Below are positions 1 to 23,370 of a stretch of DNA of 32,391 nucleotides, piece by piece (position 1 is the first letter of the stretch; the number at the start of each line of letters is the position of its first letter). The notes under the pieces are model-generated. The model worked only from the letters and a program-made list of their open reading frames with translations. It did no database searches and was not told the DNA's origin. The DNA comes from a virus. A program made the position numbers and the translations under genes. The stretch is from the IMG/VR virus record IMGVR_UViG_3300045988_068295; one strand, written 5' to 3'.

Positions 1-312
1 ATGATCGACGAAAGCCTTGTGGTGCTTTTGCAGTGCATCCGGGAGCACTTTGGCAAGCCCATCACGATCACCAGCGGCTACCGCACCGGAACCCACAACA
101 CCGCCGTCGGCGGCTCCAGATCCAGCCAGCACCTGCTGGGCAAGGCAGCGGACATCCAGGTGGCGGGCGTGTCCGTCGAGGACGTGGCCGCCTACGCCGA
201 GAGCCTGATGCCCGCCTGGGGTGGCGTTGGCCGCTACCCCGTCAAGGCGGGCCGCGCCAAGGGCTGGGTGCATGTGGACACCCGGCCCAACAAAAGCAGA
301 TGGACGCAGTGA
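1..312 (+). CDS. Endolysin, zinc peptidase M15 (Peptidase_M15_3 / YcbK-like). This is the C-terminal 103 aa; the N-terminal 34 codons lie at 32213..32314 across the circular junction.
   Basis: Motifs SGYRTGTHNTAVGG, SSQHLLGKAADI (H-x6-D metal ligands) and GWVHVDTR. The reading frame is continuous with the ATG at 32213. A holin gene follows directly. Confidence 0.85.
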   Translation: MIDESLVVLLQCIREHFGKPITITSGYRTGTHNTAVGGSRSSQHLLGKAADIQVAGVSVEDVAAYAESLMPAWGGVGRYPVKAGRAKGWVHVDTRPNKSRWTQ

Positions 313-323
313 GGAGGTGGCGC

Positions 324-749
324 ATGAAAGATTATTTTTGCATGGCGATCGGCGCGATCGGCGGCGTGATCGCCGGTCTTTTTGGCGGCTGGGATGCCGC
401 CATGCAAACGCTGGTGATCTTTATGGCCGTCGACTACATCACCGGTCTAATTGTGGCCGGTGTGTTTCACGCATCGCCCAAAACCAAGACCGGGACACTG
501 GAAAGCCGGGCAGGCTGGAAGGGCCTGATCCGCAAGGGCGAAACGCTCCTGATCGTGCTGGTGGCCTGCAGGCTGGATGCCGTGATGGGTTCCACCTTTG
601 TGCGGGATGCCGTTGTGATCGGCTTTATCTGTAACGAGACCATTTCCATCATTGAAAACGCGGGCTTGATGGGACTGCCGATCCCGGCAGCGCTCACCAA
701 GGCTGTGGACATTTTAAAGCAGCGCTCGGAAACCGAGCAGAAAGGATAA
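324..749 (+). CDS. Holin (Phage_holin_4_1 / toxin-secretion-phage-lysis holin family)
   Basis: ATG at 324 is preceded by GAGGAGG (312..318). There are several TM segments and the family-typical DYITG...SRAGWKG...NETISIIENAGLMGLPIP pattern. The ORF-track start at 33 overlaps the endolysin and lacks an RBS. Confidence 0.8.
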   Translation: MKDYFCMAIGAIGGVIAGLFGGWDAAMQTLVIFMAVDYITGLIVAGVFHASPKTKTGTLESRAGWKGLIRKGETLLIVLVACRLDAVMGSTFVRDAVVIGFICNETISIIENAGLMGLPIPAALTKAVDILKQRSETEQKG

Positions 750-3060: not shown

Positions 3061-3085
3061 AAAAATACACCTCCATGGGTACACT

Positions 3086-3114
3086 TTGACAAGCCTGCCC
3101 GGAGGTGGTACAAT
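3086..3114 (+). promoter_or_regulatory. Near-consensus sigma-A type promoter: TTGACA, 17-nt spacer, TGgTACAAT
   Basis: TTGACA at 3086..3091, a 17-nt spacer and an extended -10 TGgTACAAT ending at 3114. It points away from int and into the int/cargo intergenic region. Confidence 0.6.
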
Positions 3115-3120
3115 ACAACT

Positions 3121-3194
3121 GCTGGATTGGATTGTTCCTCGTGAGCAAGCCATTCTTTCGCGCCCTGCCGGTTGCCGCCGGTGGGGCGTTTTTT
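3121..3194 (+). ncRNA. Candidate small RNA of about 74 nt, cis-antisense to the cargo-int intergenic region
   Basis: Bounded by the consensus promoter (3086..3114) and a strong intrinsic terminator (3161..3194). No RBS or credible ORF is present. It contains a UUCCUC anti-SD-like stretch. Confidence 0.45.
3161..3194 (+). terminator. Rho-independent terminator, plus-strand polarity
   Basis: An 11-bp stem (CGCCCTGCCGG / CCGGTGGGGCG, two G-U pairs), loop TTGCCG, then TTTTTT. On the minus strand no U-tract follows the hairpin. Confidence 0.75.
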
Positions 3195-7256: not shown

Positions 7257-8893
7257 TCATCAGCCAGAACAGCAACGATGTTTACTACGCCTATACCCGT
7301 GGGCGCTTCTGGCGCTGGGACGGATCCGCACAGACCTGGAAGGAAAGCCATCTGCTGGCCCAGAAGTTCGACAAAGCCAAGGCCGTTGAAAAGTGGCTGA
7401 CCCCGGAAGCGTTTCTGACCAGCGACGAGTTCATCCCGATGGACGACTACGCGCTTCCGGATCAGATGCTCACCGCCCTCAGGGATGCCAAGCCCTGCAA
7501 AAATGCCCCCATCGACCCAGTGGAAGAGGATTCTTCCTCGGGTGTTCCTGCTCCCTGCATCTGCTCTACCTGCACCTGTGGCGGGTGCAAAGAAGAATGC
7601 TTCGGAAACTGCCACAGTTGCGGCCATCCCGTGCAGGAGTGCAACAGCTACCAGACCGAAGGCGAAAAGCATTTAACTCCCGCTCACTCTGCGGATGTTG
7701 ACAAACCGGAAGTGCCCGGAACCCAGACGACACAGGACAAGCCCCTGACCACCGTGCCGGATGAGATGCGCCCGGCGTTCGATTACTCCGGGCTGGACGA
7801 GCAGACCGTGGAGGACCTGCACTTTGCAGAAAAGGAGTACCAGCACGGCAAGAAACTGGCCGAGCGCGGCCTGATTCACATGGGCGACGCCATCGCCATT
7901 GCGCATGAAGCGCTGTGCGGAGTTGTCGCAAATTGCGACAACTCTGGTGATGGAGCTTGTCGCAATTTGCGACGAGCTCACAACAACCAGCACAGTGATG
8001 ACACCTTCCGGGCGTGGTGCGTGTCCATCGGCATCACCAAAGATACCGCTTACCGGCTGTTACAGGTGGCCACCCTGATGGACCACAGCAACCCGCGCCA
8101 GCAGAAGGTACTGAAAGAGTTGTCTCCATCTCTGCTGTATGCCGTGGCAAAGCCCAGCGCCCCGGCAGAGCTGGTGGCACAGGTCAAGAGCGGTGATATC
8201 ACAACACACAAGCAGTATCAGGAAGCCCTTGCCCAGATCAAGGCCGAAAAGGACCGTGCCAATGCTGCCGAGGCTGAGCGGGACAAGCTGCTGGGTGCCC
8301 AGAATCGGGCTGCCTGGGCGGAAAGCCACATCCAAGATGTCGAAGCCCAGCGGGATGCCGCCCTTGCGGACGTGCAGGGTCTGACCGAGCAGAACGCCAA
8401 GCTCCAGCAGAGTTACCACGATGCGGACGAAAGCCGCATTGCCGCCAATCTCCAGCGCCAGAAGGCCGAAGCCGAACGCGACAAGGCCGAAGCCCGTGCC
8501 AAGGATGCTGAGAATCAGCTGGCCGGGGCCCGGCAGGTGGCAGAGGCCGCAAAGCTGCGGGGCGACAAGCTCAAGGCCGAGAACGACGCGCTGAAAAGTC
8601 AGCCCATCACCGCCGTGGTGGACAAAGAGGAGACCCGGCGGCAGGCAAAAGAAATGGCCGACGCCATGAATGCCGAGCTACAGGAAAAACTGGACGCCGT
8701 CACCGGGGACGCCGAGCAGGACGTCCGGAACGCTTACGACAGCGTCCTGCTGGCCAGCCGGGCCATGCTGAACACCTGGCAGATGGTAAAGCCGCAGTTC
8801 CGCAAACTGCCGCAGGAGCAGCGGGAAGCCGTCGCCAATCAGCTCATCCGTACACTGGGACAAATTCAAGGGGAGGTATCACAATGTCTGTAA
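7253..8893 (+). CDS. DUF3102-like protein with a Cys-rich segment and a long C-terminal coiled coil
   Basis: Cys cluster CICSTCTCGGCKEECFGNCHSCGHPVQEC. DUF3102-like core (AEKEYQHGKKLAERGLIHMGDAIAIAHEAL ... FRAWCVSIGITKDTAYRLLQVATL). About 200 aa of heptad-rich A/E/K/Q sequence. Confidence 0.55.
   Translation: MIISQNSNDVYYAYTRGRFWRWDGSAQTWKESHLLAQKFDKAKAVEKWLTPEAFLTSDEFIPMDDYALPDQMLTALRDAKPCKNAPIDPVEEDSSSGVPAPCICSTCTCGGCKEECFGNCHSCGHPVQECNSYQTEGEKHLTPAHSADVDKPEVPGTQTTQDKPLTTVPDEMRPAFDYSGLDEQTVEDLHFAEKEYQHGKKLAERGLIHMGDAIAIAHEALCGVVANCDNSGDGACRNLRRAHNNQHSDDTFRAWCVSIGITKDTAYRLLQVATLMDHSNPRQQKVLKELSPSLLYAVAKPSAPAELVAQVKSGDITTHKQYQEALAQIKAEKDRANAAEAERDKLLGAQNRAAWAESHIQDVEAQRDAALADVQGLTEQNAKLQQSYHDADESRIAANLQRQKAEAERDKAEARAKDAENQLAGARQVAEAAKLRGDKLKAENDALKSQPITAVVDKEETRRQAKEMADAMNAELQEKLDAVTGDAEQDVRNAYDSVLLASRAMLNTWQMVKPQFRKLPQEQREAVANQLIRTLGQIQGEVSQCL
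7923..7973. repeat. Two 15-bp palindromic sites (GTCGCAAATTGCGAC and GTCGCAATTTGCGAC), 34 bp centre to centre, inside the DUF3102-like CDS
   Basis: The sites are 7925..7939 and 7959..7973. Each has GTCGCA/TGCGAC arms and the two are reverse complements of each other. Confidence 0.8.
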
Positions 8894-10203
8894 AGATCAC
8901 GGCGCTGGAAGCCGAGAACGTCAAGCGCATCAAGGCCGTTGCGCTCACCCCGTCGCCCACCGGGCTCACCCTCGTGGGCGGCAACAACAATCAGGGCAAG
9001 ACCAGCGTGCTGGACGCCCTGGCGTGGGCCCTGGGCGGGGACCGTTTCCGTCCGGACGCCGCACAGCGGGACGGTGCTATCGCCCCGGCGCACCTCAAGG
9101 TCACCCTGTCCAACGGGGTGGTCGTGGAGCGCAAGGGCAAGAACGCCAGCCTGACCGTCACCGACCCCACCGGCCGGCGCAGCGGCCAGCAGCTGCTCAA
9201 TGCGTTCGTGGAGCCGCTGGCCCTCGACCTGCCCCGCTTCATGGAAGCGTCGGACAAGGAAAAGGCCGACATCCTGCTGCGCATCATCGGCGTGGGGTCC
9301 GAGCTGCAGGTCAAAGATCTGGAGATCAAGGGCCTGTACGACAAGCGCACCTTCACCGGCCAGCTGGCCGCCCAGAAAAAGCACTTTGCCGAAGGGCTGA
9401 TCTCCTACCCGGAAGCCCCGGACGAGCCGGTGAGCGCCTCCGAGCTCATCCGCCAGCAGCAGGACATCCTTGCCCGCAACGGCGAGAACCAGCGCAAGCG
9501 CCGGCAGGCGCAGGAGCTGACCCGCAAGCGGGATGAGGCCATGGCCGAGATGCAGCGGCTGGATGAGCGCATCGCCGAGCTGACCGCCCGGCGGGAGGAA
9601 GTGAGCAAGAAGCACACGGCATTGTTCGTGCAGGCGATGGAAGCCAGTAAATCCGCCGAGCAGCTGCAGGATGAATCCACCGCCGAACTGGAAGCGTCCA
9701 TCCGGGACATCGAGGAGACCAACCGCAAGGTGCGTGCCAACCTCGAAAAGGCCCGCGCCGAGGACGAGGCCGCCCAGTACGCCAGCGACTACGACAAGCT
9801 GACCGGCCAGATCGAGGACAAGCGTGCCGAGCGCATGGCCCTGCTGAACGGGGCCGACCTGCCCCTGCCGGGCCTCAGCGTGGAGGACGGCGTCCTTACT
9901 TACAACGGCAAGCGCTGGCGGGACATGTCCGGCAGCGACCAGCTGCGGGTGGCCACGGCCATCGTGCGGCGGCTGAACCCGGACTGCGGTTTCGTGCTGC
10001 TGGACAAGCTGGAGCAGATGGACCTGACCACCCTGCAGGAGTTTTCCGCCTGGCTGGAAGCCGAGGGCCTGCAGGCCATTGCAACCCGCGTGTCTACCGG
10101 CAGCGAATGCCAGATCATCATCGAGGACGGCATGGTCAAGGGCACCGAGCCGCCCGCCGAAAAGCCCCAGCCGAACAAGAGCTGGACGAAAGGAGCGTTT
10201 TAA
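8884..10203 (+). CDS. SMC/SbcC/RecF-like AAA ATPase (AAA_23-type)
   Basis: Walker A GGNNNQGKTS, a central coiled coil, and a C-terminal signature/Walker B region (SGSDQLRVATAIV...GFVLLDKLEQMD). Confidence 0.8.
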   Translation: MSVKITALEAENVKRIKAVALTPSPTGLTLVGGNNNQGKTSVLDALAWALGGDRFRPDAAQRDGAIAPAHLKVTLSNGVVVERKGKNASLTVTDPTGRRSGQQLLNAFVEPLALDLPRFMEASDKEKADILLRIIGVGSELQVKDLEIKGLYDKRTFTGQLAAQKKHFAEGLISYPEAPDEPVSASELIRQQQDILARNGENQRKRRQAQELTRKRDEAMAEMQRLDERIAELTARREEVSKKHTALFVQAMEASKSAEQLQDESTAELEASIRDIEETNRKVRANLEKARAEDEAAQYASDYDKLTGQIEDKRAERMALLNGADLPLPGLSVEDGVLTYNGKRWRDMSGSDQLRVATAIVRRLNPDCGFVLLDKLEQMDLTTLQEFSAWLEAEGLQAIATRVSTGSECQIIIEDGMVKGTEPPAEKPQPNKSWTKGAF

Positions 10204-11301
10204 ATGAGCAAGTATTCCGTGACCACCGGCGTGCAGACCGCGCCGGTCAAAACCGTGCTCTACGGGCCGGAGGGCATTGGCAAATCCACCTTTGCCTCCC
10301 ATTTTCCGGATCCGGTGTTCATCGACACCGAGGGCGGCACCAAGCGGCTGAATGTGGCCCGCCTGCCCCAGCCCACCAGCTGGGCGATGCTGCTGGACGA
10401 GGTGGCAGAGGTGCGCAAGGGCAGTGTGCCCTGCGGCACGCTGGTCATCGACACCGCCGACTGGGCCGAGCGCCTGTGCATCCAGGCGGTGTGCGCCCGT
10501 GCCAAGGTCAACGGCATCGAGGATTTTGGCTACGGAAAGGGCTACACCTACGTCAAGGAGGAGTTCAGCAAGCTGCTGGATGCCCTGGAAGAGGTGCTGA
10601 ACGCCGGCCACAATGTGGTGGTGCTGGCCCATGCCGCCATCACCAAGTTTGAGCAGCCGGACGCCGTGGGCAACTACGACCGCTGGGGCATGAAAACCAG
10701 CAAGCAGGTGGCCCCGCTGCTGCGGGAGTGGTGCGACATGCTGTTGTTCGCCAACTACAAGACCGTGGTGGAAAAGGCCGGCAGCGGCCCCAACGCCAAG
10801 AACAAGGCCAGCGGCGGCCGCCGGGTGCTGTACACCACCCATCACCCCTGCTGGGACGCCAAGAACCGCTTCGGCCTGCCGGAAGAAGTGCCCTTTGAGT
10901 ACGCCAGCATTGCCCACTGCCTGCCCGGCGGCAGCGCACCGGCAGCTACCCAGACGCCGGTGCAGCACGCCCCGGCTCCTGCCCCGCAGCCCAAACATCA
11001 GCCGGATGCCGACATCCTGCCCAGCCCCACACCGCAGCCCCAGCCGCCTCACGAGGAAGTGCCGCCCGCCCTGCTCACGCCGGACCTGATCGCGCTTGGC
11101 GTGCCGGAAAAGCTGGCCCCGCTCATGAGCGCCAACAACGTGACTCCGGAAGAGCTGCAGCATGTAGTGGGAGAGCGGGGCTATTTCCCCGAGGATATGC
11201 CCATCCGGGACTACCCCGCCGATTTCGTGGAGGGTTGCCTGGTGGCCGCATGGCCCCAGGTGCTGCAGATGGTGCTGGACGGCCGTGACCTGCCGTTTTG
11301 A
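10204..11301 (+). CDS. Sak4-like RecA-fold ATPase (AAA_24) with a Pro-rich linker and a C-terminal extension ending in DLPF
   Basis: Walker A YGPEGIGKST and Walker B TLVIDT. Pro/Gln-rich linker PAATQTPVQHAPAPAPQPKHQP...PQPQPP. The terminus reads ...DGRDLPF. Confidence 0.8.
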   Translation: MSKYSVTTGVQTAPVKTVLYGPEGIGKSTFASHFPDPVFIDTEGGTKRLNVARLPQPTSWAMLLDEVAEVRKGSVPCGTLVIDTADWAERLCIQAVCARAKVNGIEDFGYGKGYTYVKEEFSKLLDALEEVLNAGHNVVVLAHAAITKFEQPDAVGNYDRWGMKTSKQVAPLLREWCDMLLFANYKTVVEKAGSGPNAKNKASGGRRVLYTTHHPCWDAKNRFGLPEEVPFEYASIAHCLPGGSAPAATQTPVQHAPAPAPQPKHQPDADILPSPTPQPQPPHEEVPPALLTPDLIALGVPEKLAPLMSANNVTPEELQHVVGERGYFPEDMPIRDYPADFVEGCLVAAWPQVLQMVLDGRDLPF

Positions 11302-11323
11302 CAATTGAAAGGAGAACTTACTT

Positions 11324-11812
11324 ATGAATGACATGAACGCTGAAGGCCGCGCATTCGGCTGGGATGACGAATTTACCAACGAACAGCAGGAGTTCGTCCT
11401 GCTGCCGGAGGGGGACTACCCCTTTGAGGTCACCGGCATGGAGCGTGCCCGCTACGAGGGCGGTGCCAAGCTGCCGCCCTGCTCCATGGCAAAGCTGACC
11501 ATCAAGGTGTTCGGCGGGGCCAAGGGCGACGCCACCGTCACCCACCGCCTGTACCTGCACACCAAGACCCAGGGCCTGCTGGGCGCGTTCTTTGAGAGCA
11601 TCGGCCAGTGCAAGCGCGGCGAGACCTTCCGCCCCCGCTGGAACGAGGTGGTGGGCAGCAAGGGCCTGTGCCGCCTCGGCATCCGGGAGTACACCAAGCA
11701 GAGCGGCCCCCACGCAGGCGAGACCGGCCAGAGCAACGAGGTGACCCGCTTCCTGCCGCCGCCGGAGCCCACGGCCGCGCCTGCGCACGGCTGGACACAG
11801 GGGGCGTTTTAA
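11324..11812 (+). CDS. DUF669-family protein (SSB-like partner of Sak4-type recombinases)
   Basis: FGWDDEF...FVLLPEGDYPFEVTG opening typical of DUF669. It lies directly after the Sak4-like gene. Confidence 0.65.
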   Translation: MNDMNAEGRAFGWDDEFTNEQQEFVLLPEGDYPFEVTGMERARYEGGAKLPPCSMAKLTIKVFGGAKGDATVTHRLYLHTKTQGLLGAFFESIGQCKRGETFRPRWNEVVGSKGLCRLGIREYTKQSGPHAGETGQSNEVTRFLPPPEPTAAPAHGWTQGAF

Positions 11813-13441
11813 ATGGCACAGACGCAAGCCCTGCGCCCCTACCAGCAGGCCGCACGGGATGCCATCCACACCGAGTGGGAGAACGGCCATGCCCGCACCC
11901 TGCTGGTGCTGCCTACCGGCACCGGCAAGACCATCGTGTTCGCGTCGGTGGCCGCTGATCAGGTGCGTGCCGGGGACCGGGTGCTGATCCTCGCCCACCG
12001 GGGCGAGCTGCTGGAACAGGCAGCCGACAAACTGCAGCGCTCCACCGGCCTTGTCAGCGCCGTGGAAAAGGCAGAGTCCACCTGCCTGAACAGCTGGTTC
12101 CGGGTGGTGGTGGGCAGCGTGCAGACCCTGCAGCGCACTGCCCGGCTGGAACGCTTCCCACGGGATTACTTCGGCACCATCATCATCGACGAGGCCCACC
12201 ACGCCATCACCGACGGTTACCGCCGCATCCTGGACTACTTCGAGAGTGCAAAGGTGCTGGGTGTGACCGCCACCCCTGACCGGGGTGACATGCGGAACCT
12301 GGGCGAGGTGTTCGACAGCCTGGCCTATGAGTACAAGCTGACGGATGCCATCAAAGAGGGGTATCTGTGCAAGATCATGGCCCAGACCATTCCCCTGCAG
12401 CTGGACATCTCGTCCGTGACCCTCAGCGGCGGCGACTACGCTGTGGCCGACCTCGGCACCGCGCTGGACCCGTATCTGGAGCAGATCGCCGCCGAGATGG
12501 CCGTGCGCTGCAAAGGCCGCAAGACGGTGGTGTTCCTGCCCCTCATCCGGACGAGCCAGAAATTCCGCGATCTGCTCAACGCCAAGGGATTCCGGGCCGC
12601 CGAGGTCAACGGCCAGAGTGCCGACCGCAAAGAAGTGCTGGCCGACTTCGACGCCGGCAAATACAATGTGCTGTGCAACTCCATGCTGCTCACCGAGGGC
12701 TGGGACTGCCCGTCCGTGGACTGCGTGGTGGTGCTGCGGCCCACCAAGGTGCGCAGCCTGTACAGCCAGATGGTGGGGCGCGGCACCCGCCTTTCCCCGG
12801 GCAAGACCGACCTGCTGTTGCTGGATTTCCTGTGGATGACCGACAAGCACGAGCTGTGCCGCCCGGCAGACCTGGTCTGTGAGGACCGCACTGTGGCCCG
12901 CCAGATGACCGAGCATCTGGCCGAGACCGGCTGCCCGGAGGACATCGAGGAGGCCGCCGCCCAGGCCAGCGAGGACGTGGTGGCCCAGCGGGAAGAAGCC
13001 CTTGCCAAGCAGCTGGAAGAGCAGCGCCGTAAAAAGGCAAAACTGGTGGACCCGCTGCAGTACGAAATGAGCATTCAGGCCGAAGATCTGGCCGGGTATG
13101 TGCCCGCCTTTGGCTGGGAGGCCGGTCCGCCCAGCGACAAGCAGACCGCCGCGCTGGAAAAGCTGGGCATCCTGCCGGATGCGGTGGAATCCGCCGGCAA
13201 GGCGGCCCTGCTGCTGGACCGGCTGCACAAGCGCCAGACCGAGGGCCTGACCACGCCCAAGCAGATCCGCCTGCTGGAACGCTACGGCTTCCGGCATGTG
13301 GGCAGCTGGAGCTTTGACGCGGCCAGCCGCATGATCAACCGCATTGCAGCCGGCGGCTGGCGCGGCGTGCCCAAGGGTGTGGACCCCAAAACCTTCACGC
13401 CTGACGCACAGCCCGCCGTGCCGACGGACTTTGGATGGTAA
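11813..13441 (+). CDS. Superfamily-2 DEAD/DEAH-box helicase (ResIII + Helicase_C)
   Basis: Motif I LPTGTGKT, motif II IIIDEAHH, motif III TATP, motif VI QMVGRGTR. Confidence 0.9.
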   Translation: MAQTQALRPYQQAARDAIHTEWENGHARTLLVLPTGTGKTIVFASVAADQVRAGDRVLILAHRGELLEQAADKLQRSTGLVSAVEKAESTCLNSWFRVVVGSVQTLQRTARLERFPRDYFGTIIIDEAHHAITDGYRRILDYFESAKVLGVTATPDRGDMRNLGEVFDSLAYEYKLTDAIKEGYLCKIMAQTIPLQLDISSVTLSGGDYAVADLGTALDPYLEQIAAEMAVRCKGRKTVVFLPLIRTSQKFRDLLNAKGFRAAEVNGQSADRKEVLADFDAGKYNVLCNSMLLTEGWDCPSVDCVVVLRPTKVRSLYSQMVGRGTRLSPGKTDLLLLDFLWMTDKHELCRPADLVCEDRTVARQMTEHLAETGCPEDIEEAAAQASEDVVAQREEALAKQLEEQRRKKAKLVDPLQYEMSIQAEDLAGYVPAFGWEAGPPSDKQTAALEKLGILPDAVESAGKAALLLDRLHKRQTEGLTTPKQIRLLERYGFRHVGSWSFDAASRMINRIAAGGWRGVPKGVDPKTFTPDAQPAVPTDFGW

Positions 13442-15681
13442 CGCACATGGAACATGAAAACGATCTCAAAGAAGCGCTGGAATTTCTCAGCCCGTCCGCC
13501 CTGACCTATGACGAGTGGGTCGCGGTGGGCATGGCCCTCAAGGACGGCGGCCTGCCGGTGACCGTCTGGGAGCAGTGGAGCACGCGAGACGCCGGCCGCT
13601 ACCACAAGGGCGAGTGCGTCAAAAAATGGGAGAGCTTCCACGGCGGCGGGGGCAGCCCCGTCACGGTGAGCAGCATCTTCCAGATGGCCTACTCCCACGG
13701 GTGGAGCGGCCCGGCGGGCCATGCGCTGGACTGGAACGACGACATCGCCGCAGGGCCGGGCGCACAGCCGGAGGGCCGCGTGGTGGACCCGCGCTGGGTG
13801 GAAGCCCACGAGCTGGCCCTGCCGGAACAGTGGGACCCCGCCGACCAGCTGAAGCGCTACCTGCGAGCCCTGTTCGAGGCGGACGAGTATGTGGCTTATG
13901 TTACCGAGAGCTTCATGGCGGACGACCGCCGCCGCCCCACAAGGGGCTGCTGGGACCGCACCGCCGGGCAGCTCCTTGCCGAGCTGGACCAATGCGGCGG
14001 GGACCTGGGCAAGGTGGTGGGCGACTGCGACCCGGAGGTAGGTGCGTGGATCTGCTTCAACCCCGTGGACGGCACCGGCCGCAAGGACGCCAACATCACC
14101 GCTTATCGCTACGCCCTTGTGGAGTGCGACAACATGGAGCTGGGCAAGCAGCAGGCCATCATCCGGCAGCTGGAACTGCCCTGCGCGGCCCTCGTCTACT
14201 CCGGCGGCAAGAGCGTCCATGCCATCGTCAAGGTGGATGCCCCGGACTATACCGAGTACCGCAAGCGGGTGGATTACCTCTACGCCGCCTGTCAGAAGAA
14301 CGGCCTGACCATCGACCAGCAGAACCGCAATCCTTCCCGCCTTTCCCGGATGCCGGGCATCCCGCGCGGAGACAAAAAGCAGGTGCTGCTGGAAACGAAC
14401 ATCGGCAAAAGCTGCTGGGACGAATGGCGGGACTGGCTGGAAGCCGAGACCGACGAGCTGCCGGACACCGAGAACCTTGCTGCCGACTGGGCCAGCCTGC
14501 CGCCGCTGGCCGACCCGCTCATCTTCGGGGTGCTGCGCAAGGGCCACAAGATGCTGCTGGCAGGCCCCAGCAAGGCCGGCAAGAGCTTTGCCCTCATCGA
14601 GCTGTGCATCTCCATTGCCGAGGGCAAGCCGTGGCTGGGGCAGTTCAACTGTGCACAGGGCAAGGTGCTGTACATCAATCTGGAACTGGACCGGGCGTCC
14701 TGCCTGCACCGCTTCAAGGATGTGTATGCGGCCCTCGGCCTTGCGCCGGAGAACCTTGCAAACATCGACATCTGGAACCTGCGCGGTGCGTCCGTGCCCA
14801 TGGACAAGCTGGCCCCCAAGCTCATCCGCCGGGCAAAGAAAAAGGGCTATACCGCCGTCATCCTCGACCCCATTTATAAGGTCATCACCGGCGACGAGAA
14901 CTCGGCCGACCAGATGGCAAAGTTCTGCAACCAGTTCGACCTAGTCTGCCGGGAGCTGGACTGCGCCGTCATCTACTGCCACCACCACAGCAAGGGTGCC
15001 CAGGGCGGCAAGCGCAGCATGGACCGTGCGTCCGGCTCCGGCGTGTTCGCCCGTGACCCGGACGCCATGCTGGACATGACCGAGCTGGTGCCTACCGATG
15101 CCATCCGCCAACAGCTGCACAATAAGGCCGCCTGCCGGGTCATCAAGGCCATGCTGGACAAGCGCGGCCATGCGGACGCCTACGGCCCGGACGATACCCT
15201 CAGCAGGAGCCGGATGCTGGCCGTGGCCAAGGAGTGCCTGGGCCTGGCCGACCTGCGGGCCATTGACGCCGAAGTCGCCGCCGCCCAGAAGCAGGCCGAC
15301 GGCATGACTGCCTGGCGCATCGAGGGCACGCTCCGCGAGTTCGCCCGCTTTGACCCGGTGAACCTCTGGTTTGACTACCCGGTGCACAAGCCGGACAGCG
15401 GTCTGCTGGAGGATCTGCAGCCGGACAGCGACTTCCGCACCCTGGGCAACCGCGGTGCCGCCAAGCGCTGGGGCGACAAAGGCAAAGTGACCAAGGACAA
15501 AAAAGCCGAACTGGACACCGCCTTTGAAGCCTGCACCATGGACGGCGAGGTGACCGTCTATGCTCTGGCCGAATACATGGACCTAAAGCCCCGCACCGTC
15601 AAGACCCGCCTGAAGGATGACGGGCGGTTCTGGATCGACGGTGAGAAAGTTGGACGCAAGGAACCCGGCAGCAACGGTTAA
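13435..15681 (+). CDS. Bifunctional primase-polymerase / replicative helicase (PriCT-2-like N-terminus, AEP-like core, AAA_25 RecA-type ATPase, C-terminal wHTH)
   Basis: YDEWVAVGMALK...WEQWS (PriCT-2-like). ALVECDN and YSGGKSVHAIV (AEP motifs). Walker A GPSKAGKS and Walker B AVILDP. The start could be 13435 or 13447. Confidence 0.8.
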   Translation: MVTHMEHENDLKEALEFLSPSALTYDEWVAVGMALKDGGLPVTVWEQWSTRDAGRYHKGECVKKWESFHGGGGSPVTVSSIFQMAYSHGWSGPAGHALDWNDDIAAGPGAQPEGRVVDPRWVEAHELALPEQWDPADQLKRYLRALFEADEYVAYVTESFMADDRRRPTRGCWDRTAGQLLAELDQCGGDLGKVVGDCDPEVGAWICFNPVDGTGRKDANITAYRYALVECDNMELGKQQAIIRQLELPCAALVYSGGKSVHAIVKVDAPDYTEYRKRVDYLYAACQKNGLTIDQQNRNPSRLSRMPGIPRGDKKQVLLETNIGKSCWDEWRDWLEAETDELPDTENLAADWASLPPLADPLIFGVLRKGHKMLLAGPSKAGKSFALIELCISIAEGKPWLGQFNCAQGKVLYINLELDRASCLHRFKDVYAALGLAPENLANIDIWNLRGASVPMDKLAPKLIRRAKKKGYTAVILDPIYKVITGDENSADQMAKFCNQFDLVCRELDCAVIYCHHHSKGAQGGKRSMDRASGSGVFARDPDAMLDMTELVPTDAIRQQLHNKAACRVIKAMLDKRGHADAYGPDDTLSRSRMLAVAKECLGLADLRAIDAEVAAAQKQADGMTAWRIEGTLREFARFDPVNLWFDYPVHKPDSGLLEDLQPDSDFRTLGNRGAAKRWGDKGKVTKDKKAELDTAFEACTMDGEVTVYALAEYMDLKPRTVKTRLKDDGRFWIDGEKVGRKEPGSNG

Positions 15682-17119: not shown

Positions 17120-17470
17120 ATGGCAAAGACTGTTGCACGCCCGGATCGGGACGGCACCCACCGGCTGGCGTTTGAACGCAACAAGAAAAAGATCTACGCC
17201 ACCCAGACCGTGTGCGGCATCTGCGGCAAGCCTGTGGATTTCAGCTACAAGTTTCCGCATCCGCTTTCGCCGTGCATCGACCACATCATTCCGGTGGCCA
17301 AGGGCGGCCACCCCAGCGACCTCGCCAACCTGCAGCTGGCGCATTTCTGGTGCAACCGGCAGAAGAGCGACAAGCTGTTTACGCCTGTGGAGCAGCAGAC
17401 GGAGCCGGATGCAGATGCCTCCATGGCCCTGCCGCTGAGCACCGACTGGACGGCGTACCGCAGCCGCTGA
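17120..17470 (+). CDS. HNH endonuclease (packaging-associated)
   Basis: CGICGKP ... CIDHIIPVAKGGHPSDLANLQLAHFWCNRQKSDK (Cys pairs plus H-N-H). AAGGAG RBS. Confidence 0.9.
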   Translation: MAKTVARPDRDGTHRLAFERNKKKIYATQTVCGICGKPVDFSYKFPHPLSPCIDHIIPVAKGGHPSDLANLQLAHFWCNRQKSDKLFTPVEQQTEPDADASMALPLSTDWTAYRSR

Positions 17471-17593
17471 GACGGCCCGCAGCGCCGCCGGGACACGCAC
17501 GCAGGGACGGGGGGCATCCCCCTCCCAGGGGGCCCTCTGACCTTCCCAGACCGTACTGTGAATATTTTCTCGTGAAAGGAGAATCCACCGCCC

Positions 17594-18823
17594 ATGACCG
17601 ACCTGAAAGGCATGGCCTATCTGCGCCGCCGCCTGAACCAGAAGCGCAGCCGAGTGCTGACCCGCTACAAGTATTACGAGATGAAGAACGCCGTAAAGGA
17701 CTTTGGCAAGGTCACCCCGGATGAGTTCCGCTTTTTCAGCGAGACGCTGGGCTGGTGCGGGAAAGCTGTGGACGCTCTGGCCGACCGGCTGGTCTGGCGG
17801 GAGTTCCGGGATGATAACTTTGACCTGAACTCCATCTACCAGATGAACAACGCAGACACCCTGTTTGACAGTGCCGTGCTGTCGGCCCTCATTTCCAGCT
17901 GCTGCTTTCTGTACATCAGCCCGGACGGCAGCGGCTACCCCCGGCTGCAGGTCATCGACGGCGGCAACGCCACCGGCATCCTGGACGAGGTGACCGGCCT
18001 GCTCACGGAAGGATATGCCGTGCTGTCCCGTGATCCGGAGACGGACAAGCCCCTGCTGGAGGCCTACTTCACGGCAGACAGCACCTGGTATTACCCCAAC
18101 GGCCAAAAGCCGTATCAGGTGCCAAACCTCGCACCGGCCCCGCTGCTGGTGCCCGTCGTATACCGCCCGGATGCCAAGCGGCCCTTTGGCCACAGCCGCA
18201 TCTCCCGTGCCTGCATGGGCCTGCAGCAGGGTGCCCTGCGCACCCTCAAGCGCAGCGAGATCAGCGCCGAGTTCTATTCCTTCCCGCAGAAATATGTGCT
18301 GGGCACCTCCAACGACGCCGAGCAGATGGACAAGTGGAAGGCCACCATCTCCAGTTTTCTGGAATTCACCAAGGACGAGGACGGCGACAAGCCGGTGGTG
18401 GGCCAGTTCACCCAGCAGAGCATGAGCCCCTACACCGAGCAGCTGCGCACATTTGCCGCCCTGTTTGCAGGCGAGACCGGCCTGACGCTGGATGATCTGG
18501 GCTTCGTCACCGACAACCCCTCCAGCGCCGAGGCCATCAAGTCCAGCCACGAGAGCCTGCGCCTGGCGGCCCGCAAGGCACAGCGCACCTTTGGCAGCGG
18601 CTTCCTGAACGCCGGGTATCTGGCCGCCTGCATGCGGGACGGCATCGCCTACCAGCGTCAGCAGCTCTACCTCACCCGCCCGGTGTGGGAGCCGGTGTTC
18701 GAGCCGGACGCCGCCACCCTGTCCGGCATCGGGGACGCCGTGGGCAAGATCAACACGGCCATCCCCGGTTATTTCGGTGCGGAGAACCTGCGGGACCTGA
18801 CCGGCATCCGCTCCGAGAGCTGA
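17594..18823 (+). CDS. Portal protein (SPP1 gp6-like)
   Basis: Size, position upstream of the MuF gene, and an N-terminal pattern (YLRRRLNQKRSRVLTRYKYYE..., CGKAVDALADRL) typical of gp6-like portals. Confidence 0.75.
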   Translation: MTDLKGMAYLRRRLNQKRSRVLTRYKYYEMKNAVKDFGKVTPDEFRFFSETLGWCGKAVDALADRLVWREFRDDNFDLNSIYQMNNADTLFDSAVLSALISSCCFLYISPDGSGYPRLQVIDGGNATGILDEVTGLLTEGYAVLSRDPETDKPLLEAYFTADSTWYYPNGQKPYQVPNLAPAPLLVPVVYRPDAKRPFGHSRISRACMGLQQGALRTLKRSEISAEFYSFPQKYVLGTSNDAEQMDKWKATISSFLEFTKDEDGDKPVVGQFTQQSMSPYTEQLRTFAALFAGETGLTLDDLGFVTDNPSSAEAIKSSHESLRLAARKAQRTFGSGFLNAGYLAACMRDGIAYQRQQLYLTRPVWEPVFEPDAATLSGIGDAVGKINTAIPGYFGAENLRDLTGIRSES

Positions 18824-18833
18824 GGAGGCACCC

Positions 18834-20168
18834 ATGGCCGACAAGGACATTGCCCCGGAGCTGCTGGAGCGCATCCGGGCCGACTTCCGGGCGCTGCTGG
18901 GCGACGCAAAGCCCGCCGCCGACACCTACGCTGCCGCTGCGGATTACGCCGAGCTTGTGGGCAGTGCCCTGGCCGAGGCCTTCCGCCGCAACCTGACCGC
19001 CGACGCCCTGCCGGACGGCAGGCTGTACTGGAACATTGCCGACCGGGTGGTGCGCCCCCTGCTGGAAGAGGAGCACCTGCTGGTGGCGGACGCTTCCGCT
19101 GCCGTGCAGCAGGCACTGAACCAGCAGGCAAATCTCGGCATTGCCCCGCAGCGGGCCGTGCTGCCCACCGACGCTGTGGACGACCTGCTGAACAAGGTGT
19201 CCACGGCGGAGCAGTTTGCGGATGTGGCGTGGGCACTGGACGAGCCGGTGCGTACCTTCTCCCGCATGGTGGTGGACGACACCCTGAAACGCAACGTGGA
19301 TTTTCAGGGCAAGGCCGGGCTGCGGCCCCGTGTCATCCGCACCGCCGAGAGCCACTGCTGCAAATGGTGCAGTGCGCTGGCCGGCACTTACGATTACCCC
19401 CGTGTGCCCAAAGACGTTTACCGCCGCCACGAGCGCTGCCGCTGCCGGGTGGAATATGACCCCGGCGAGGGCAGGCGGCAGAACGTGTGGAACAAGACGT
19501 GGACGGAGGATGAGGACGCCCGGCAGGCACGCATTCAAAAGATTCAAAACCCATCGACAAACCGAGACGATTCTGCTAAGATAGAAGCACGAAAACAGAT
19601 TGGGCTGCCGCCGGTCGATTCACCTGAGATCAAGGCCATCAAGGCCGCAATGTCCGAGCAGGTGCTTAGTCTGCCGGAAACCGCACAGGAGGCTCTCCGG
19701 CAGTATACCGGCTTTACGGCGACCCGTGTGAACTTTGCCATCCGGAACGGAAAAATCACACCGCAGATCCAGGAGACCATTTCCGCATTGGATAACGCGC
19801 TGGCTTCCGGCGTGATGCCGCAGAGCGTCACCCTGTACCGGAACACAGCGCTTTCTTTTCTAGGGTTCGGGCTTCCCAAAAATCCGACCCTGCAGGATCT
19901 GCAAGACCTTGTGGATCTCACACCGGAATTTCCGATATTTATATCAACCAGTTTTCAGGATCTGCATCTTCCGGGCCGTGACACGCTGATTCAGCTGCAT
20001 GTTCCGGCAGGATATAAGGGCTGCCAGTTCCTTCAGCCTGTAGCGCTTCCCAAATTCAAAAGTCAGGACGAAGTCCTGTTTGCCCGTGGGATGCAGTATC
20101 GTGTGCTGGATGTTGGTAGAAAAGACGACCGATATTTTTTAGAGATCGAGGTGCTCCAAAATGTCTAA
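18834..20168 (+). CDS. Minor head protein (MuF / SPP1 gp7 domain) fused to a C-terminal ADP-ribosyltransferase toxin domain (C3/VIP2-like, R-STS-QxE)
   Basis: MuF signature CCKWCSALAGTYDYPRVPKDVYRRHERCRCRVEYDP. ADPRT motifs LYR (R336, 19839..19841), FISTSF (19944..19952) and SQDEVLFARG (Q411-x-E413, 20064..20072). Confidence 0.85.
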   Translation: MADKDIAPELLERIRADFRALLGDAKPAADTYAAAADYAELVGSALAEAFRRNLTADALPDGRLYWNIADRVVRPLLEEEHLLVADASAAVQQALNQQANLGIAPQRAVLPTDAVDDLLNKVSTAEQFADVAWALDEPVRTFSRMVVDDTLKRNVDFQGKAGLRPRVIRTAESHCCKWCSALAGTYDYPRVPKDVYRRHERCRCRVEYDPGEGRRQNVWNKTWTEDEDARQARIQKIQNPSTNRDDSAKIEARKQIGLPPVDSPEIKAIKAAMSEQVLSLPETAQEALRQYTGFTATRVNFAIRNGKITPQIQETISALDNALASGVMPQSVTLYRNTALSFLGFGLPKNPTLQDLQDLVDLTPEFPIFISTSFQDLHLPGRDTLIQLHVPAGYKGCQFLQPVALPKFKSQDEVLFARGMQYRVLDVGRKDDRYFLEIEVLQNV

Positions 20169-20424
20169 ATTTTTGCGTGAAGAGGATATCAGCATGGGGT
20201 TCCGTGCTCCACTTTACAGCGTGCCGGTCTGTATCCCGGAATGCAATGTCTGTATTCACCGGGATGGACCGGGCAAATGCAAAAAGTTAGGAACTCCCTC
20301 CGATGATCTTCGTTTCGGAAAGCGCCACGATTGCCCGGACGCCGTCCTGAATACCAGCCATTTTTTATATCCCGAATACCAAAAATTGTACCCGGAAGAG
20401 TGCAAGGTCTCTGCCAAAAAGTAA
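20161..20424 (+). CDS. 87-aa Cys-rich protein, translationally coupled to the MuF-ADPRT gene (candidate immunity/antidote)
   Basis: GAGGTG lies 7 nt upstream of the ATG at 20161, which overlaps the upstream stop (ATGTCTAA). Cys pattern C-x3-C-x2-C-x8-C plus two more Cys. GC is lower than the surroundings. Confidence 0.55.
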   Translation: MSKFLREEDISMGFRAPLYSVPVCIPECNVCIHRDGPGKCKKLGTPSDDLRFGKRHDCPDAVLNTSHFLYPEYQKLYPEECKVSAKK

Positions 20425-20494
20425 ACTTTCATCCACGGAATATCCTAGTTTAACCACTGTATGCCCTCAAAAAGGCACAACATGGTTTTTTCAT

Positions 20495-20571
20495 GCCGTT
20501 TTAGCTCATGTTGGCAGGGCCGTGGTCTCCAAAACCACAGGTCACTGGTTCGATTCCAGTAAACGGTGCCA
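20495..20571 (+). tRNA. trnW: tRNA-Trp (anticodon CCA)
   Basis: The full cloverleaf was folded by hand. Acceptor GCCGTTT/AAACGGT (G1-U72), D-stem GCTC/GGGC, anticodon stem GTGGT/ACCAC with loop CT-CCA-AA, T-arm ACTGG-TTCGATT-CCAGT, discriminator G, encoded CCA. Confidence 0.9.
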
Positions 20572-20604
20572 TCATTTTCATGCAAAGGAGGAACCCAGCC
20601 CACC

Positions 20605-22020
20605 ATGCCGCGGACGCGAAAACAGACAGCCCCGGCAAGGCTGGGGCGTCAGACGCCCACCGCTGCCGTGGTGCTGCCCTACACCAAAACCTTCGGCCAG
20701 GACGCCATCGACCTGTACAACTCCACCGGGCGCATCGCCCAGCAGTGGCAGGAGCTGCTGCTGTATGACATCCTTGCCCGCAACGAGGAGGATCTGTGGG
20801 TGCATACCAAGTTCGGCTATGCCGTGCCCCGCCGCAACGGCAAGAACGAGATCGCCGCCATCCGGGAGCTGTACGGCCTGCAGCAGGGCGAGAGCATCCT
20901 GCACACCGCCCACCGCACCACCACCTCCCGGGCCGCCTGGGAGCGGTTGTGCCACCTGCTGGACAAGGCCAAGATCCCCTATAAATCCATTCAGGCCGTG
21001 GGCCGGGAGCACATCCAGCTGGAAGAGGGCGAGGGCCGCATCGAGTTCCGCACCCGCTCCTCCAAGGGCGGCCTGGGCGAGGGCTTTGACCTGCTGGTCA
21101 TCGACGAGGCCCAGGAGTACACCGACGATCAGGCCAGTGCCCTGAAGTATGTGGTCACTGACAGCGAGAACCCGCAGACCCTGTTCTGCGGCACCCCGCC
21201 CACGCCGGTGTCCTCCGGCACGGTGTTCCTCAAAATGCGCAACGCCGCCCTGCGGGGCGACACGCAGAACACCGGCTGGGCCGAGTGGAGCGTGGAGCAG
21301 CAGACCGACCCCCACGACGTGGAGGCCTGGTATCAGACGAACCCCAGCCTCGGCACCATCTTCACCGAGCGCAGTGTGGCGGATGAGATCGGCGATGACC
21401 CCATCGACTTCAACATCCAGCGTCTGGGGCTGTGGCTTCGGTACAACCTCAAATCGGCCATCAGCCGGGCAGAGTGGGACGAACTGAAAACCGACACCCT
21501 GCCCAAGCTCACCGGCAAGCTGTATGCCGGCATCAAGTTCAGCACCGACGGCACCAGCTGTGCGCTGGCCGTTGCGTGCCGCACCAAAGACAACGCTATC
21601 TTCGTGGAAGCCATCGGCTGCCATCCTACCCGGGACGGCAGCGGGTGGCTTCTTGATTTTCTATCCAAAGCCGACCTAGCCGCCGTGGCGGTGGACGGGG
21701 CCAGCGGGCAGCAGCTTCTGGCCGACGCCATGAAGGCCGCCCACCTCAGGTCCCCCGTGCTGCCCACGGTCAAGCAGGTCATCACCGCCAACGCCGCCTT
21801 CGAGCAGGCCCTTTTTGCGCAAGCCCTGTGCCATGCCGGCCAGCCCGGCCTTGCGCAGGCTGCTTCCAACTGCGAAAAGCGGGCCATCGGCTCCAACGGC
21901 GGCTTCGGTTACCGCTCTCTGACCGAGGGCGGCCACATCGAGCTGCTGGACAGCGTGATCCTGGCCCACTGGCAGTGCGCCGAGGGCAAGGGCAAGCGCC
22001 GGCAGCGCATCCGCTATTAA
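20605..22020 (+). CDS. terL: Terminase large subunit
   Basis: Walker A-like AVPRRNGKN, Walker B DLLVIDEAQEY, and a C-terminal nuclease-size domain. The start at 20605 was chosen because the track start at 20566 overlaps the tRNA. Confidence 0.85.
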   Translation: MPRTRKQTAPARLGRQTPTAAVVLPYTKTFGQDAIDLYNSTGRIAQQWQELLLYDILARNEEDLWVHTKFGYAVPRRNGKNEIAAIRELYGLQQGESILHTAHRTTTSRAAWERLCHLLDKAKIPYKSIQAVGREHIQLEEGEGRIEFRTRSSKGGLGEGFDLLVIDEAQEYTDDQASALKYVVTDSENPQTLFCGTPPTPVSSGTVFLKMRNAALRGDTQNTGWAEWSVEQQTDPHDVEAWYQTNPSLGTIFTERSVADEIGDDPIDFNIQRLGLWLRYNLKSAISRAEWDELKTDTLPKLTGKLYAGIKFSTDGTSCALAVACRTKDNAIFVEAIGCHPTRDGSGWLLDFLSKADLAAVAVDGASGQQLLADAMKAAHLRSPVLPTVKQVITANAAFEQALFAQALCHAGQPGLAQAASNCEKRAIGSNGGFGYRSLTEGGHIELLDSVILAHWQCAEGKGKRRQRIRY

Positions 22021-22044
22021 CAGGCCACCCGGGCCTGTTTTTTT
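22019..22044 (+). terminator. Rho-independent terminator between terL and the scaffold gene
   Basis: AACAGGCC-ACCCG-GGCCTGTT followed by a run of 7 T (stem and T-run overlap). Confidence 0.75.
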
Positions 22045-22067
22045 GTTGCCATAAAGGAGGGTATTCC

Positions 22068-22457
22068 ATGGCAGAAGCATTTGAACCCATTACCACGCAG
22101 GAGGCGTTTGAGGCCGCTGTCGCTGACAGGCTGGCCCCTTACGCCGACTACAACGACCTCAAGGCCCAGAACGAGACCCTCGCCGGGCAGGTGGCGGAGC
22201 TGAACACCCGCTGCCAGACCTACGAGACGGACGCGCTCAAGACCCGCGTTGCCCATGAGGTGGGCCTGCCGTTCGACCTGGCGGGCCGCCTGACCGGCTC
22301 CAAGGAGGAGGACATCCGCAAGGACGCCCAGAACCTGCTGCAGCTGATCAAGCCCAAGACCCCGCCCGCACCCCTGCGCGGCGACCCCGACCCCAGCGGC
22401 AGCGGCAAAAAGGCCGCCTGGCGCAGTTTCGCAAACCAGCTGATGAACAACGAGTAA
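22068..22457 (+). CDS. Capsid scaffolding protein (DUF4355-like)
   Basis: AAGGAGG RBS. Helical acidic protein with VAHEVGLPFDLAGRLTGSKEEDIRKDAQNL, typical of DUF4355 scaffolds. It lies immediately upstream of the capsid gene. Confidence 0.65.
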   Translation: MAEAFEPITTQEAFEAAVADRLAPYADYNDLKAQNETLAGQVAELNTRCQTYETDALKTRVAHEVGLPFDLAGRLTGSKEEDIRKDAQNLLQLIKPKTPPAPLRGDPDPSGSGKKAAWRSFANQLMNNE

Positions 22458-22470
22458 AGGAGAACACATC

Positions 22471-23370
22471 ATGGCAGATATTCTGAGCAAAGGCTCCCTG
22501 TTCCCGGAGGAGCTGATCCCCGGCTTTATCCAGAAAACCACCGGCGCGTCCGCGCTGGCCAAGCTCTGCGGCGCAACGCCCATCGCCTTCAACGGCCAGA
22601 AGGAATTCACCTTCACGCTGGACAAGGAAGTGGACATCGTGGCAGAAAACGGTGCCAAGGGCAAGGGCGGCATGACCGTGGAGCCCATCACCATCGTGCC
22701 CATCAAGATCGAGTATGGTGCACGCGTGTCCGACGAGTTCCTGTACGCTTCCGAGGACGCCCAGATGGACGTTCTGAGCGCCTTTGCGGACGGCTTTGCC
22801 AAGAAGGTGGCCAAGGGTCTGGACCTCATGGCCTTCCACGGCATCAACCCCCGCACCGGCTCTGCGTCCGGCGTCATCGGCACCAACCACTTTGACAGCA
22901 AGGTCACCCAGGCCGTGACCATTGCCGCCTCCGACAAGCCCGACACCAACGTGGAGGCCGCCATCGCCCTGGTGCAGGGCGCGGAGCGGGACGTTACCGG
23001 CATGGTGCTGGCCCCCAGCTTCAAGAGCGCTCTGGCGGCCCAGACCACTACCGACGGTGCCAAGCTGTACCCGCAGCTGGCCTGGGGCGCAAACCCCGGC
23101 GAGGTGAACGGCCTGCGGGTGGAATCCACCTCCAACCTGTCCGCCGGTTCCAGCCTGGACCGTGCGCTGGTGGGCGACTTCACCAACTGCTTCAAGTGGG
23201 GCTACGCCAAGGAGATGCCCATTGAGGTGATCCAGTACGGCAATCCCGACAACGATGCGGATCTGGGTGACCTGAAGGGCCACAACCAGGTATACCTGCG
23301 CGGCGAGGCCTACATCGGCTGGGGCATCCTGGATCCGTCCGCATTCGCCCACATCAAGGCCAACGCCTAA
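22471..23370 (+). CDS. Major capsid protein (HK97 fold, Phage_capsid family)
   Basis: Size, position and sequence pattern (ILSKGSLFPEELIPGFIQKT..., DLMAFHGINPRTG). Confidence 0.85.
   Translation: MADILSKGSLFPEELIPGFIQKTTGASALAKLCGATPIAFNGQKEFTFTLDKEVDIVAENGAKGKGGMTVEPITIVPIKIEYGARVSDEFLYASEDAQMDVLSAFADGFAKKVAKGLDLMAFHGINPRTGSASGVIGTNHFDSKVTQAVTIAASDKPDTNVEAAIALVQGAERDVTGMVLAPSFKSALAAQTTTDGAKLYPQLAWGANPGEVNGLRVESTSNLSAGSSLDRALVGDFTNCFKWGYAKEMPIEVIQYGNPDNDADLGDLKGHNQVYLRGEAYIGWGILDPSAFAHIKANA

Follow-up and report, generated by a model that had tools for sequence, protein, structure and literature searches.

Polymorphic toxins fused to phage head proteins of the MuF superfamily are an established group, and ADP-ribosyltransferases (ARTs) make up 14% of 191 MuF toxins (Jamet et al. 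2017, BMC Biol 15:75); it has also been stated that 'many Alt/VIP2 ARTs are fused to MuF' (Iyer et al. 2022). Toxicity and immunity have been demonstrated for MuF-Apk2 toxins, and phage StB12 is the only precedent found in the literature for the presence of a MuF toxin in virions. The MuF3 branch of the superfamily was seeded from the first 250 amino acids (aa) of gp35 of Streptococcus mitis phage SM1 and was tied to Pfam MuF1 and MuF2 by HHsearch (Jamet et al. 2017). Here we describe a gene of this published architecture in a stretch of viral DNA of 32,391 nucleotides (nt) (IMG/VR record IMGVR_UViG_3300045988_068295, called the window below), as was expected in a preliminary description of the stretch, which had pointed to MuF-fused polymorphic toxins known in temperate Firmicute phages. 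The gene (18834..20168, + strand) is complete in the list of open reading frames (ORFs), starts with ATG and encodes 444 aa. We read it as a polymorphic 'MuF toxin' composed of a MuF3 head domain, a linker and an R-S-(Q)xE mono-ART of the C3/VIP2/Alt clade. The ART domain and a downstream ORF of 87 aa (ORF87) would have come together as a cassette of lower guanine-cytosine (GC) content, at a locus that trades toxin modules between near-identical phages, and the source would be an Aster-like temperate cos siphophage of a Faecalibacterium/Gemmiger-type gut Firmicute. For this explanation as a whole we estimate a probability of roughly 70%.

The preliminary description of a single ORF with a head domain and an ART C-terminus was confirmed. 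Residues 1-225 (18834..19508, +) form the N-terminal minor head domain of the MuF3 or SM1-gp35 type, residues 226-261 (19509..19616, +) the linker, and residues 262-444 (19617..20165, +) the C3/VIP2-type mono-ART domain. An identical copy of the 444-aa protein represents a cluster of 654 members from gut metagenomes and database sequences, and one member of its 90%-identity cluster bears the NCBI name 'ADP-ribosyltransferase [Gemmiger sp.]'. The NCBIfam search gave no match for the toxin, the portal protein or the terminase large subunit (TerL), and the PADLOC search none for the toxin. In the AlphaFold2 model of the toxin protein the mean predicted local distance difference test score (pLDDT) is 75, with residues 1-210 at about 80-98.

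The N-terminal part had been described as a MuF/SPP1-gp7 head morphogenesis domain, and its nature as a head protein is well supported. PHROG 2494 'minor head protein' matches residues 4-255 (E=4e-88), BLASTP aligns 268 positions with the N-terminus of SM1 gp35 at 35% identity (E=5e-61), and the toxin gene starts at 18834, 11 nt on from the end of the portal gene at 18823, an order of portal and then head protein that recurs in every related locus examined and is one of the features by which MuF genes are defined. On the basis of the PHROG match, the position after the portal gene and the identity with gp35 we place the domain in the MuF3 branch, which lies outside the coverage of Pfam; its link to Mu gpF and SPP1 gp7 is based on literature. 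The structural neighbours in BFVD are named Gp35, 'minor capsid protein', 'head morphogenesis protein' and 'ADP-ribosyltransferase domain and MuF-like fusion protein', and many of these alignments cover both domains, with a high root-mean-square deviation. In the alignment with 52 relatives, 41 columns are invariant and the conserved part ends at about residue 225. A CCxWC...HxxCxC motif (residues 175-204; nt 19356-19370 and 19428-19445) is invariant in all 52 aligned relatives and looks like a metal-binding site; in the hhalign comparison of profiles it falls, as CCxWC...HxxCRC, in register with 'C..C...H.nCRC' of MuF1.

The C-terminal domain is an ART by several independent comparisons. Pfam ADPrib_exo_Tox (PF03496), the family named in the preliminary description, matches residues 279-429 (E=4e-17, 62.6 bits against a cut-off of 23.4 bits), and PHROG 3895 'ADP-ribosyltransferase exoenzyme toxin' matches independently (E=1.8e-13). 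The three catalytic elements, claimed earlier to be intact and in order, were located exactly in the sequence of aromatic-Arg, Ser-Thr-Ser and the (Q/E)-x-Glu of the ADP-ribosylating turn-turn (ARTT) loop: LYR at residues 334-336 (19833-19841, +; R336 codon 19839-19841), STS at residues 371-373 (19944-19952, +) and Q-D-E at residues 411-413 (20064-20072, +; Q411 codon 20064-20066, E413 codon 20070-20072). Among 95 aligned ART-domain relatives Y291, N300, R336, S371, T372, G393 and E413 are each at least 90% conserved. Sequence matches in the PDB are C3stau2, VIP2 and Lmo0066, and HMMER aligns SQDEVLFARG with the loop GQQEVLLPRG of C3stau2, in our reading the ARTT loop of that enzyme, and also with the VIP2 loop that bears E-x-E, so that the earlier view of Q-x-E as a C3-like variant holds. 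The proposed likeness to the C3 and VIP2 folds was also recovered by Foldseek, which found 114 PDB chains at E<=1e-3, headed by 8za7_B (Lmo0066), CDTa, VIP2, C3larvin and C3bot; for 8za7_B, CDTa, VIP2 and C3bot the E values are about 1e-10 to 1e-8, and the template modelling (TM) scores by target are 0.64-0.71 for those targets that have a single domain. The ratio of nonsynonymous to synonymous substitution rates (dN/dS) of the ART domain is 0.10-0.18 in three of four comparisons with orthologous loci (dS was saturated in the fourth), which indicates that the enzyme is kept by selection.

Between the two domains, the linker has a pLDDT of mostly 40-55 and is probably flexible, as far as the model tells, and it holds an optional insert. 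It carries a junction motif, AKIEARK (KIEARK at nt 19578-19595, residues 249-254), in which R253 is nearly invariant and after which the C-termini of relatives are unrelated. The motif is found also in P0013, P0040, P0048, P0080, P0094, P0084 and P0105 among the relatives and recalls the motifs at the pre-toxin junctions known from other polymorphic toxins. It may serve as a joint for recombination or as a site of processing; the stretch from the portal gene to the capsid gene showed no gene for a prohead protease.

Comparison of related loci, in phages that are 82-97% identical, shows where the toxin module is exchanged. Against prophage L002, blastn gives 97.1% nt identity up to 19533 and 97.8% from 20585 on, with nothing between, and 1,051 bp of the window are swapped there for 591 unrelated bp. 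Together with the composition, this defines a replaceable low-GC cassette (19534..20584, +) of linker, ART domain, ORF87 and a gene for tRNA-Trp. Against L006, homology ends at 19594, at the end of the AKIEARK codons, and restarts at 20414, near the ORF87 stop at 20424, and therefore L006 and the window have the tRNA-Trp in common. The left breakpoints, 19533 and 19594, thus both fall inside the linker, and the right ones are at 20413 and 20584. In L004, whose ART is orthologous (64% identity across the domain), homology runs through the entire gene. The cassette has a GC content of 0.50, compared with 0.61 for the whole window; along the window GC is 0.66-0.71 at 18700-19500, 0.47-0.58 at 19500-20500 and 0.65 again at 20600. 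By part it is 0.68 in the N-domain, 0.53 in the ART domain and 0.485 in ORF87, and GC at third codon positions is 0.85, 0.63 and 0.55, respectively, compared with 0.87 in both the portal and TerL genes. The drop in GC that the preliminary description had placed at about 19550 is thus seen from 19500, and its suggestion of a grafted C-terminal domain now has exact breakpoints.

The exchange is wide in both directions. The 104 proteins with a complete N-domain fall into 16 C-terminal clusters, and relatives with an N-domain up to 95% identical bear other C-termini, including CdiA_C-like, DUF6883, Ntox50, DUF4258 and a second ART type, as well as a weak colicin-D-like one (E=0.07, under the Pfam threshold). 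In turn, the 99 relatives of the ART domain that were scanned, obtained by searching 1.84 billion representative proteins, include 23 with a Phage_min_cap2 domain, 22 with Phage_Mu_F, 2 with VG15 and 1 with PT-HINT. A shared N-domain with varied C-termini, combined with a shared ART on varied carriers, is what defines a polymorphic toxin system. Three metagenome-derived proteins (P0003, P0009 and P0059), in which toxin parts are fused to unrelated sequence such as an SRP54/FtsY-like GTPase, were treated as assembly chimeras and excluded.

The mechanism that we propose follows the model of Jamet et al. (2017) and Iyer et al. (2022). The toxin protein would be made late in infection along with the head genes, and the 87-aa protein would bind the ART and silence the enzyme in the producing cell, while the head domain would place a small number of copies next to the portal in the procapsid. 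When the virion infects another cell, the toxin protein would exit the capsid with the DNA, and in the cytoplasm of the recipient the ART would use NAD+ for the ADP-ribosylation of a target, perhaps, as the analogy with C3 suggests, at an acceptor other than arginine. Cells expressing the 87-aa protein, either lysogens or bacteria with a stand-alone chromosomal copy, would be protected. The pay-off may be the killing of non-immune competitors or the conditioning of the host.

The second of these pay-offs leads to the best surviving alternative, which we consider less probable than the toxin reading but still take seriously: the injected ART could be an Alt-like takeover or anti-defence effector that modifies RNA polymerase or a defence factor and thereby aids the phage or biases the choice between lysis and lysogeny, with the 87-aa protein restraining it during assembly only. 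A takeover-type role has been proposed for low-toxicity MuF effectors such as ARTs (Jamet et al. 2017), and head-packaged ARTs have been regarded as host-hijacking enzymes modelled on T4 Alt (Iyer et al. 2022); the stand-alone copies of ORF87 in a defence-like neighbourhood, described below, would then be an anti-phage factor. The toxin protein also has a weak match to PHROG 802 'Alt-like' (E=4.8e-4, or about 5e-4), but this is limited to residues 234-338, and the match to PHROG 3895 is much stronger. ART chemistry and the literature thus allow a takeover role. However, in near-identical phages the same slot is occupied by C-termini of at least 16 unrelated kinds, of which many are nuclease-like; this fits diversifying conflict cassettes better, and the high turnover of such cassettes favours a role as a toxin in conflict.

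The most informative new feature, absent from the preliminary description, is the partner gene. ORF87 (20161..20424, +) encodes a Cys-rich protein, a candidate cognate immunity protein or inhibitor, and overlaps the stop of the toxin gene by 8 nt (ATGTCTAA), with a Shine-Dalgarno-like GAGGTG motif ahead of it within the last toxin codons. This geometry of overlap and motif is kept in L004, L009, L013, L015 and L018, that is, in six loci with the window. ORF87 had no match in Pfam, PHROG, NCBIfam or PADLOC. Its family, which forms 41 clusters at 90% identity, is a small one, in which C28, C31, C40, C58, C81 and aromatic residues are conserved; dN is 0.17-0.39 and dS is saturated.

ORF87 follows the ART in every phage context examined. 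It does so behind carriers of the MuF3 type (the window, L004, L021 and L023), of the Pfam Phage_Mu_F or MuF1 type (L013 and L014) and of the VG15 type (L015-L017), and also in L022, a contig of a metagenome-assembled genome with an ART 55% identical and a carrier that was not typed. In L009/L010 (4013-5264) it follows a chromosomal gene for a 331-aa protein that consists of the C-terminal half of a VG15-type head domain and an intact ART (73% identical); ordinary chromosomal genes surround the pair, with no phage genes nearby, and the 331-aa gene may be a retained prophage remnant. One of the closest pairs, in L021 (contig CAVIXY010000048.1; toxin 92% and partner 85% identical), comes from a bin named 'Bacteroides sp. 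CAG:545'. The other named relatives all belong to Faecalibacterium, Gemmiger, Ruthenibacterium or Clostridia, and the bin of L021 is probably an artefact of binning or naming. Where the C-terminus of the toxin differs (L001, L002 and L006), ORF87 is absent, and across seven loci the identities of ART and ORF87 co-vary (Spearman 0.89). Taken together, the context suggests that the 87-aa protein is likely the cognate immunity protein of the ART and belongs to an undescribed family.

Intact copies of the partner are found also without a toxin. In L018/L019/L020 (6001-6270) a homologue with 71% identity and all Cys residues kept lies on a bacterial chromosome with no ART in the locus, which is the classical 'orphan immunity' pattern. 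The copy has an 8-nt overlap with an unrelated 64-aa ORF and adjoins a gene for an Mrr-like nuclease (with matches to ZorD-like nucleases) and a Fic gene (with matches to the PADLOC candidate system PDC-S23). The 64-aa ORF was considered as a toxin stub and rejected, as tblastn found no ART remnant in it, and L011/L012, considered as another orphan immunity gene, turned out in the alignment to be a 5'-truncated remnant without the CxxC motif. A broader idea, which we hold only tentatively and regard as doubtful, is that ORF87 founds an undescribed family of small, possibly metal-binding inhibitors of C3/VIP2-type ARTs, the chromosomal copies of which gut Oscillospiraceae retain against phage-injected ART effectors. 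If this were true, ORF87 would serve the host as an 'anti-effector immunity' gene directed at a toxin that virions deliver, and this would show that the MuF-ART does act in recipient cells.

The same copies can be read in another way, since they show that the gene exists without an ART. ORF87 would then be something other than an immunity gene, for instance a moron, a small regulator, a chaperone or a packaging adaptor that travels with the ART cassette, and the lack of a known family or of a confident predicted fold agrees with this, as does the fact that adjacent genes co-vary regardless of their function. We nevertheless find it unlikely: the same 8-nt overlap follows the same ART on four carriers in different phage lineages, ORF87 is never seen with other toxin domains at the locus, purifying selection preserves its Cys pattern, and the intact toxin-less copies form the orphan immunity pattern.

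As for the chemistry of the enzyme, the Q-x-E loop suggests, by analogy and as a lead, an acceptor other than arginine; in a crude count across relatives the position of Q411 is Q in 74 and E in 44. The same fold also supports NADase and nucleic-acid-modifying activities (general knowledge; Iyer et al. 2022) and sequence alone cannot assign the acceptor, and hence the domain could be chiefly an NAD+ glycohydrolase or an enzyme that ADP-ribosylates nucleic acid, not a protein mono-ART. This is quite improbable, because every one of the best matches (C3, VIP2, CDTa, iota and Lmo0066) is an R-S-E enzyme that modifies proteins and a complete ARTT-type Q-x-E loop is present. Finally, the absence of any delivery, with the N-domain serving head assembly only and the ART acting late in the producing cell or being a neutral passenger, would fit the indirect nature of the MuF superfamily link but is very improbable, as 47 of the 99 ART-domain relatives are fused to Pfam-recognised head-protein domains, a strong indication that the fusion is selected for, a MuF toxin has been detected in the virions of StB12, and the ART is under purifying selection.

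Several observations weigh against the reading of the gene as a delivered MuF toxin with its own immunity protein. In the N-domain, neither Pfam Phage_Mu_F (PF04233) nor Phage_min_cap2 (PF06152) was found at E<=0.1 for the full protein or at E<=10 for residues 1-255, and the Pfam check that the preliminary description had proposed for this domain thus failed; the sole Pfam match is a weak one to PF25310 'VG15' (E=0.033). The hhalign comparison of the N-domain profile with MuF1 N-termini reached a probability of 48% (E=2e-4, 199 columns) and that with MuF2 1%; the value for MuF1 was also the highest when the VG15 group was included, and all profiles were shallow: 76 sequences for the N-domain (effective number of sequences, Neff, 2.4) and 19 MuF1 N-termini, with Neffs of 2.1-2.4, and 1.2 for the VG15 group. 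A homologue search from the N-terminus of SM1 gp35 gave 1,932 relatives but added little diversity, as the best 120 sequences were all 77-96% identical to SM1 gp35. The N-domain has no PDB counterpart by sequence (E<=10) or among the top 50 Foldseek matches, which were all to the ART, and the ART part of the AlphaFold2 model is itself of only moderate confidence (pLDDT about 45-85). On the side of the partner, the linkage and co-variation of the two genes are expected of any adjacent genes and are therefore no proof of interaction. The 87-aa protein resembles no known immunity family and its AlphaFold model failed (pLDDT 39), so the assignment of immunity relies on context. A scan of 19400-20700 for promoters and terminators gave a promoter count equal to chance, and hence no support for independent expression of ORF87, for example in lysogens; the terminator-like sites were all on the minus strand. 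In Faecalibacterium phage Aster (L001, 1279-2487) and in L002 (4001-5209) the gene has another, toxin-like C-terminus of about 150 aa, with a weak match to CdiA_C (E=2e-4), and the gap of about 100 nt ahead of the terminase gene contains no small ORF; an immunity gene is therefore not obligatory at the locus. In the literature found, moreover, the experimental work concerns the Apk2 class of MuF toxins, and none deals with MuF-ARTs.

The other genes of the window make it look like the nearly complete genome of a temperate phage. The gene order at 17120-23370 is HNH, portal, MuF, TerL, scaffold and capsid, and the position of TerL downstream of portal and MuF is unusual and common to SM1 and Aster. 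The portal gene (17594..18823, +) matches PHROG 104 (E=4e-113) and Pfam SPP1_portal, and the TerL gene (20605..22020, +) matches PHROG 9 (E=1e-74). TerL probably begins at the ATG at 20605, which follows an AAGGAGG motif, and the GTG at 20566 is a mechanical ORF call, which overlaps the 3' end of the tRNA gene; the TerL orthologues in L002 and L006 have 471 aa. The tRNA-Trp(CCA) gene (20495..20571, +; ARAGORN) marks the 3' edge of the variable region, and it is present also in L006 (5704-5779), where the toxin is different (DUF6883), and absent from L001, L002 and L004. A tyrosine integrase gene (1906-3153, -) is a marker of lysogeny, and elsewhere in the window (33-749, 8884-15681) there are a holin gene and a replication module with an AAA_23/SMC-like ATPase, AAA_24, a ResIII/DEAD helicase and a PriCT_2-AAA_25 primase-helicase. 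The closest isolate is Aster, with 85% nt identity across the region from portal to capsid; this temperate cos prophage can be induced by heat and has an integrase of the lambda type. Both the integrase of the window and the inducible relative show that the phage is temperate.

The locus is a clean natural case of a phage head gene within which toxin cassettes are exchanged, and its setting is the Faecalibacterium/Gemmiger group of commensals, which are abundant in the human gut. It also gives a matched pair of toxin and partner, breakpoints and a junction motif that could be used for testing virion delivery and targets of MuF-ARTs. The current understanding of MuF toxin systems is not changed by it.

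Among the known systems, gp35/gp36 of SM1 resembles the locus in having a homologous N-domain and a variable C-terminus in a temperate phage, and the gene order of HNH, cos, portal, toxin, overlapping small ORF, TerL, scaffold and capsid is identical. In contrast, SM1 gp35 has a reported putative nuclease C-terminus, and its close relatives carry Ntox50, where the toxin of the window has an ART. The small gp36 (L008, 4291-4470), which overlaps gp35, belongs to Pfam Cys_rich_CPCC (E=1.4e-8), another Cys-rich family than that of the unannotated partner in the window, and the hosts differ, being a streptococcus for SM1 and an Oscillospiraceae-type gut anaerobe for the phage of the window. The same two-part architecture, with the same Pfam family of ART, is found in actinobacteriophages such as Microbacterium phage Percival, under the standing annotation 'ADP-ribosyltransferase domain and MuF-like fusion protein', and in MuF1- and MuF2-ART fusions such as P0164 and P0176. 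Proteins of the P0164 type have an ART of the same clade (64% identical) and an ORF87 homologue as well. The N-domains of all these are recognised by Pfam Phage_Mu_F or Phage_min_cap2, whereas that of the window is not.

T4 Alt shares with the toxin an ART of the R-S-E type and is carried in the head and injected with the DNA (Iyer et al. 2022). It differs in being a separate head-internal protein of a virulent myovirus, with no swappable cassette, and the sequence relation is marginal (PHROG 802, 105 residues). T4 Alt targets arginine, and to our knowledge it has no immunity partner. The best structural match, Lmo0066 of Listeria monocytogenes (8za7; E=2.8e-10, TM 0.71, 26% identity), is also a significant sequence match and resembles the toxin studied here with its candidate partner in that a bacterial ART toxin comes with an immunity protein. 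However, its partner is an ADP-ribosylhydrolase (ARH) according to the title of the entry and not an 87-aa Cys-rich protein, it has E-x-E in the HMMER alignment where the window protein has Q-x-E, and it is not fused to a phage head domain. The clostridial and staphylococcal C3 exoenzymes and C3larvin have the same fold and the same Q-x-E variant of the ARTT loop, with only 17-21% identity. The C3 enzymes are secreted single-domain toxins that act on eukaryotic Rho GTPases, whereas the ART of the window is part of a phage head fusion and presumably has a cytoplasmic bacterial target. Compared with these systems, the MuF-ART type of fusion is already published, and what the locus adds is the cassette boundaries at the level of base pairs, the AKIEARK junction and a Cys-rich partner family that lacks annotation and has a chromosomal copy without a toxin.

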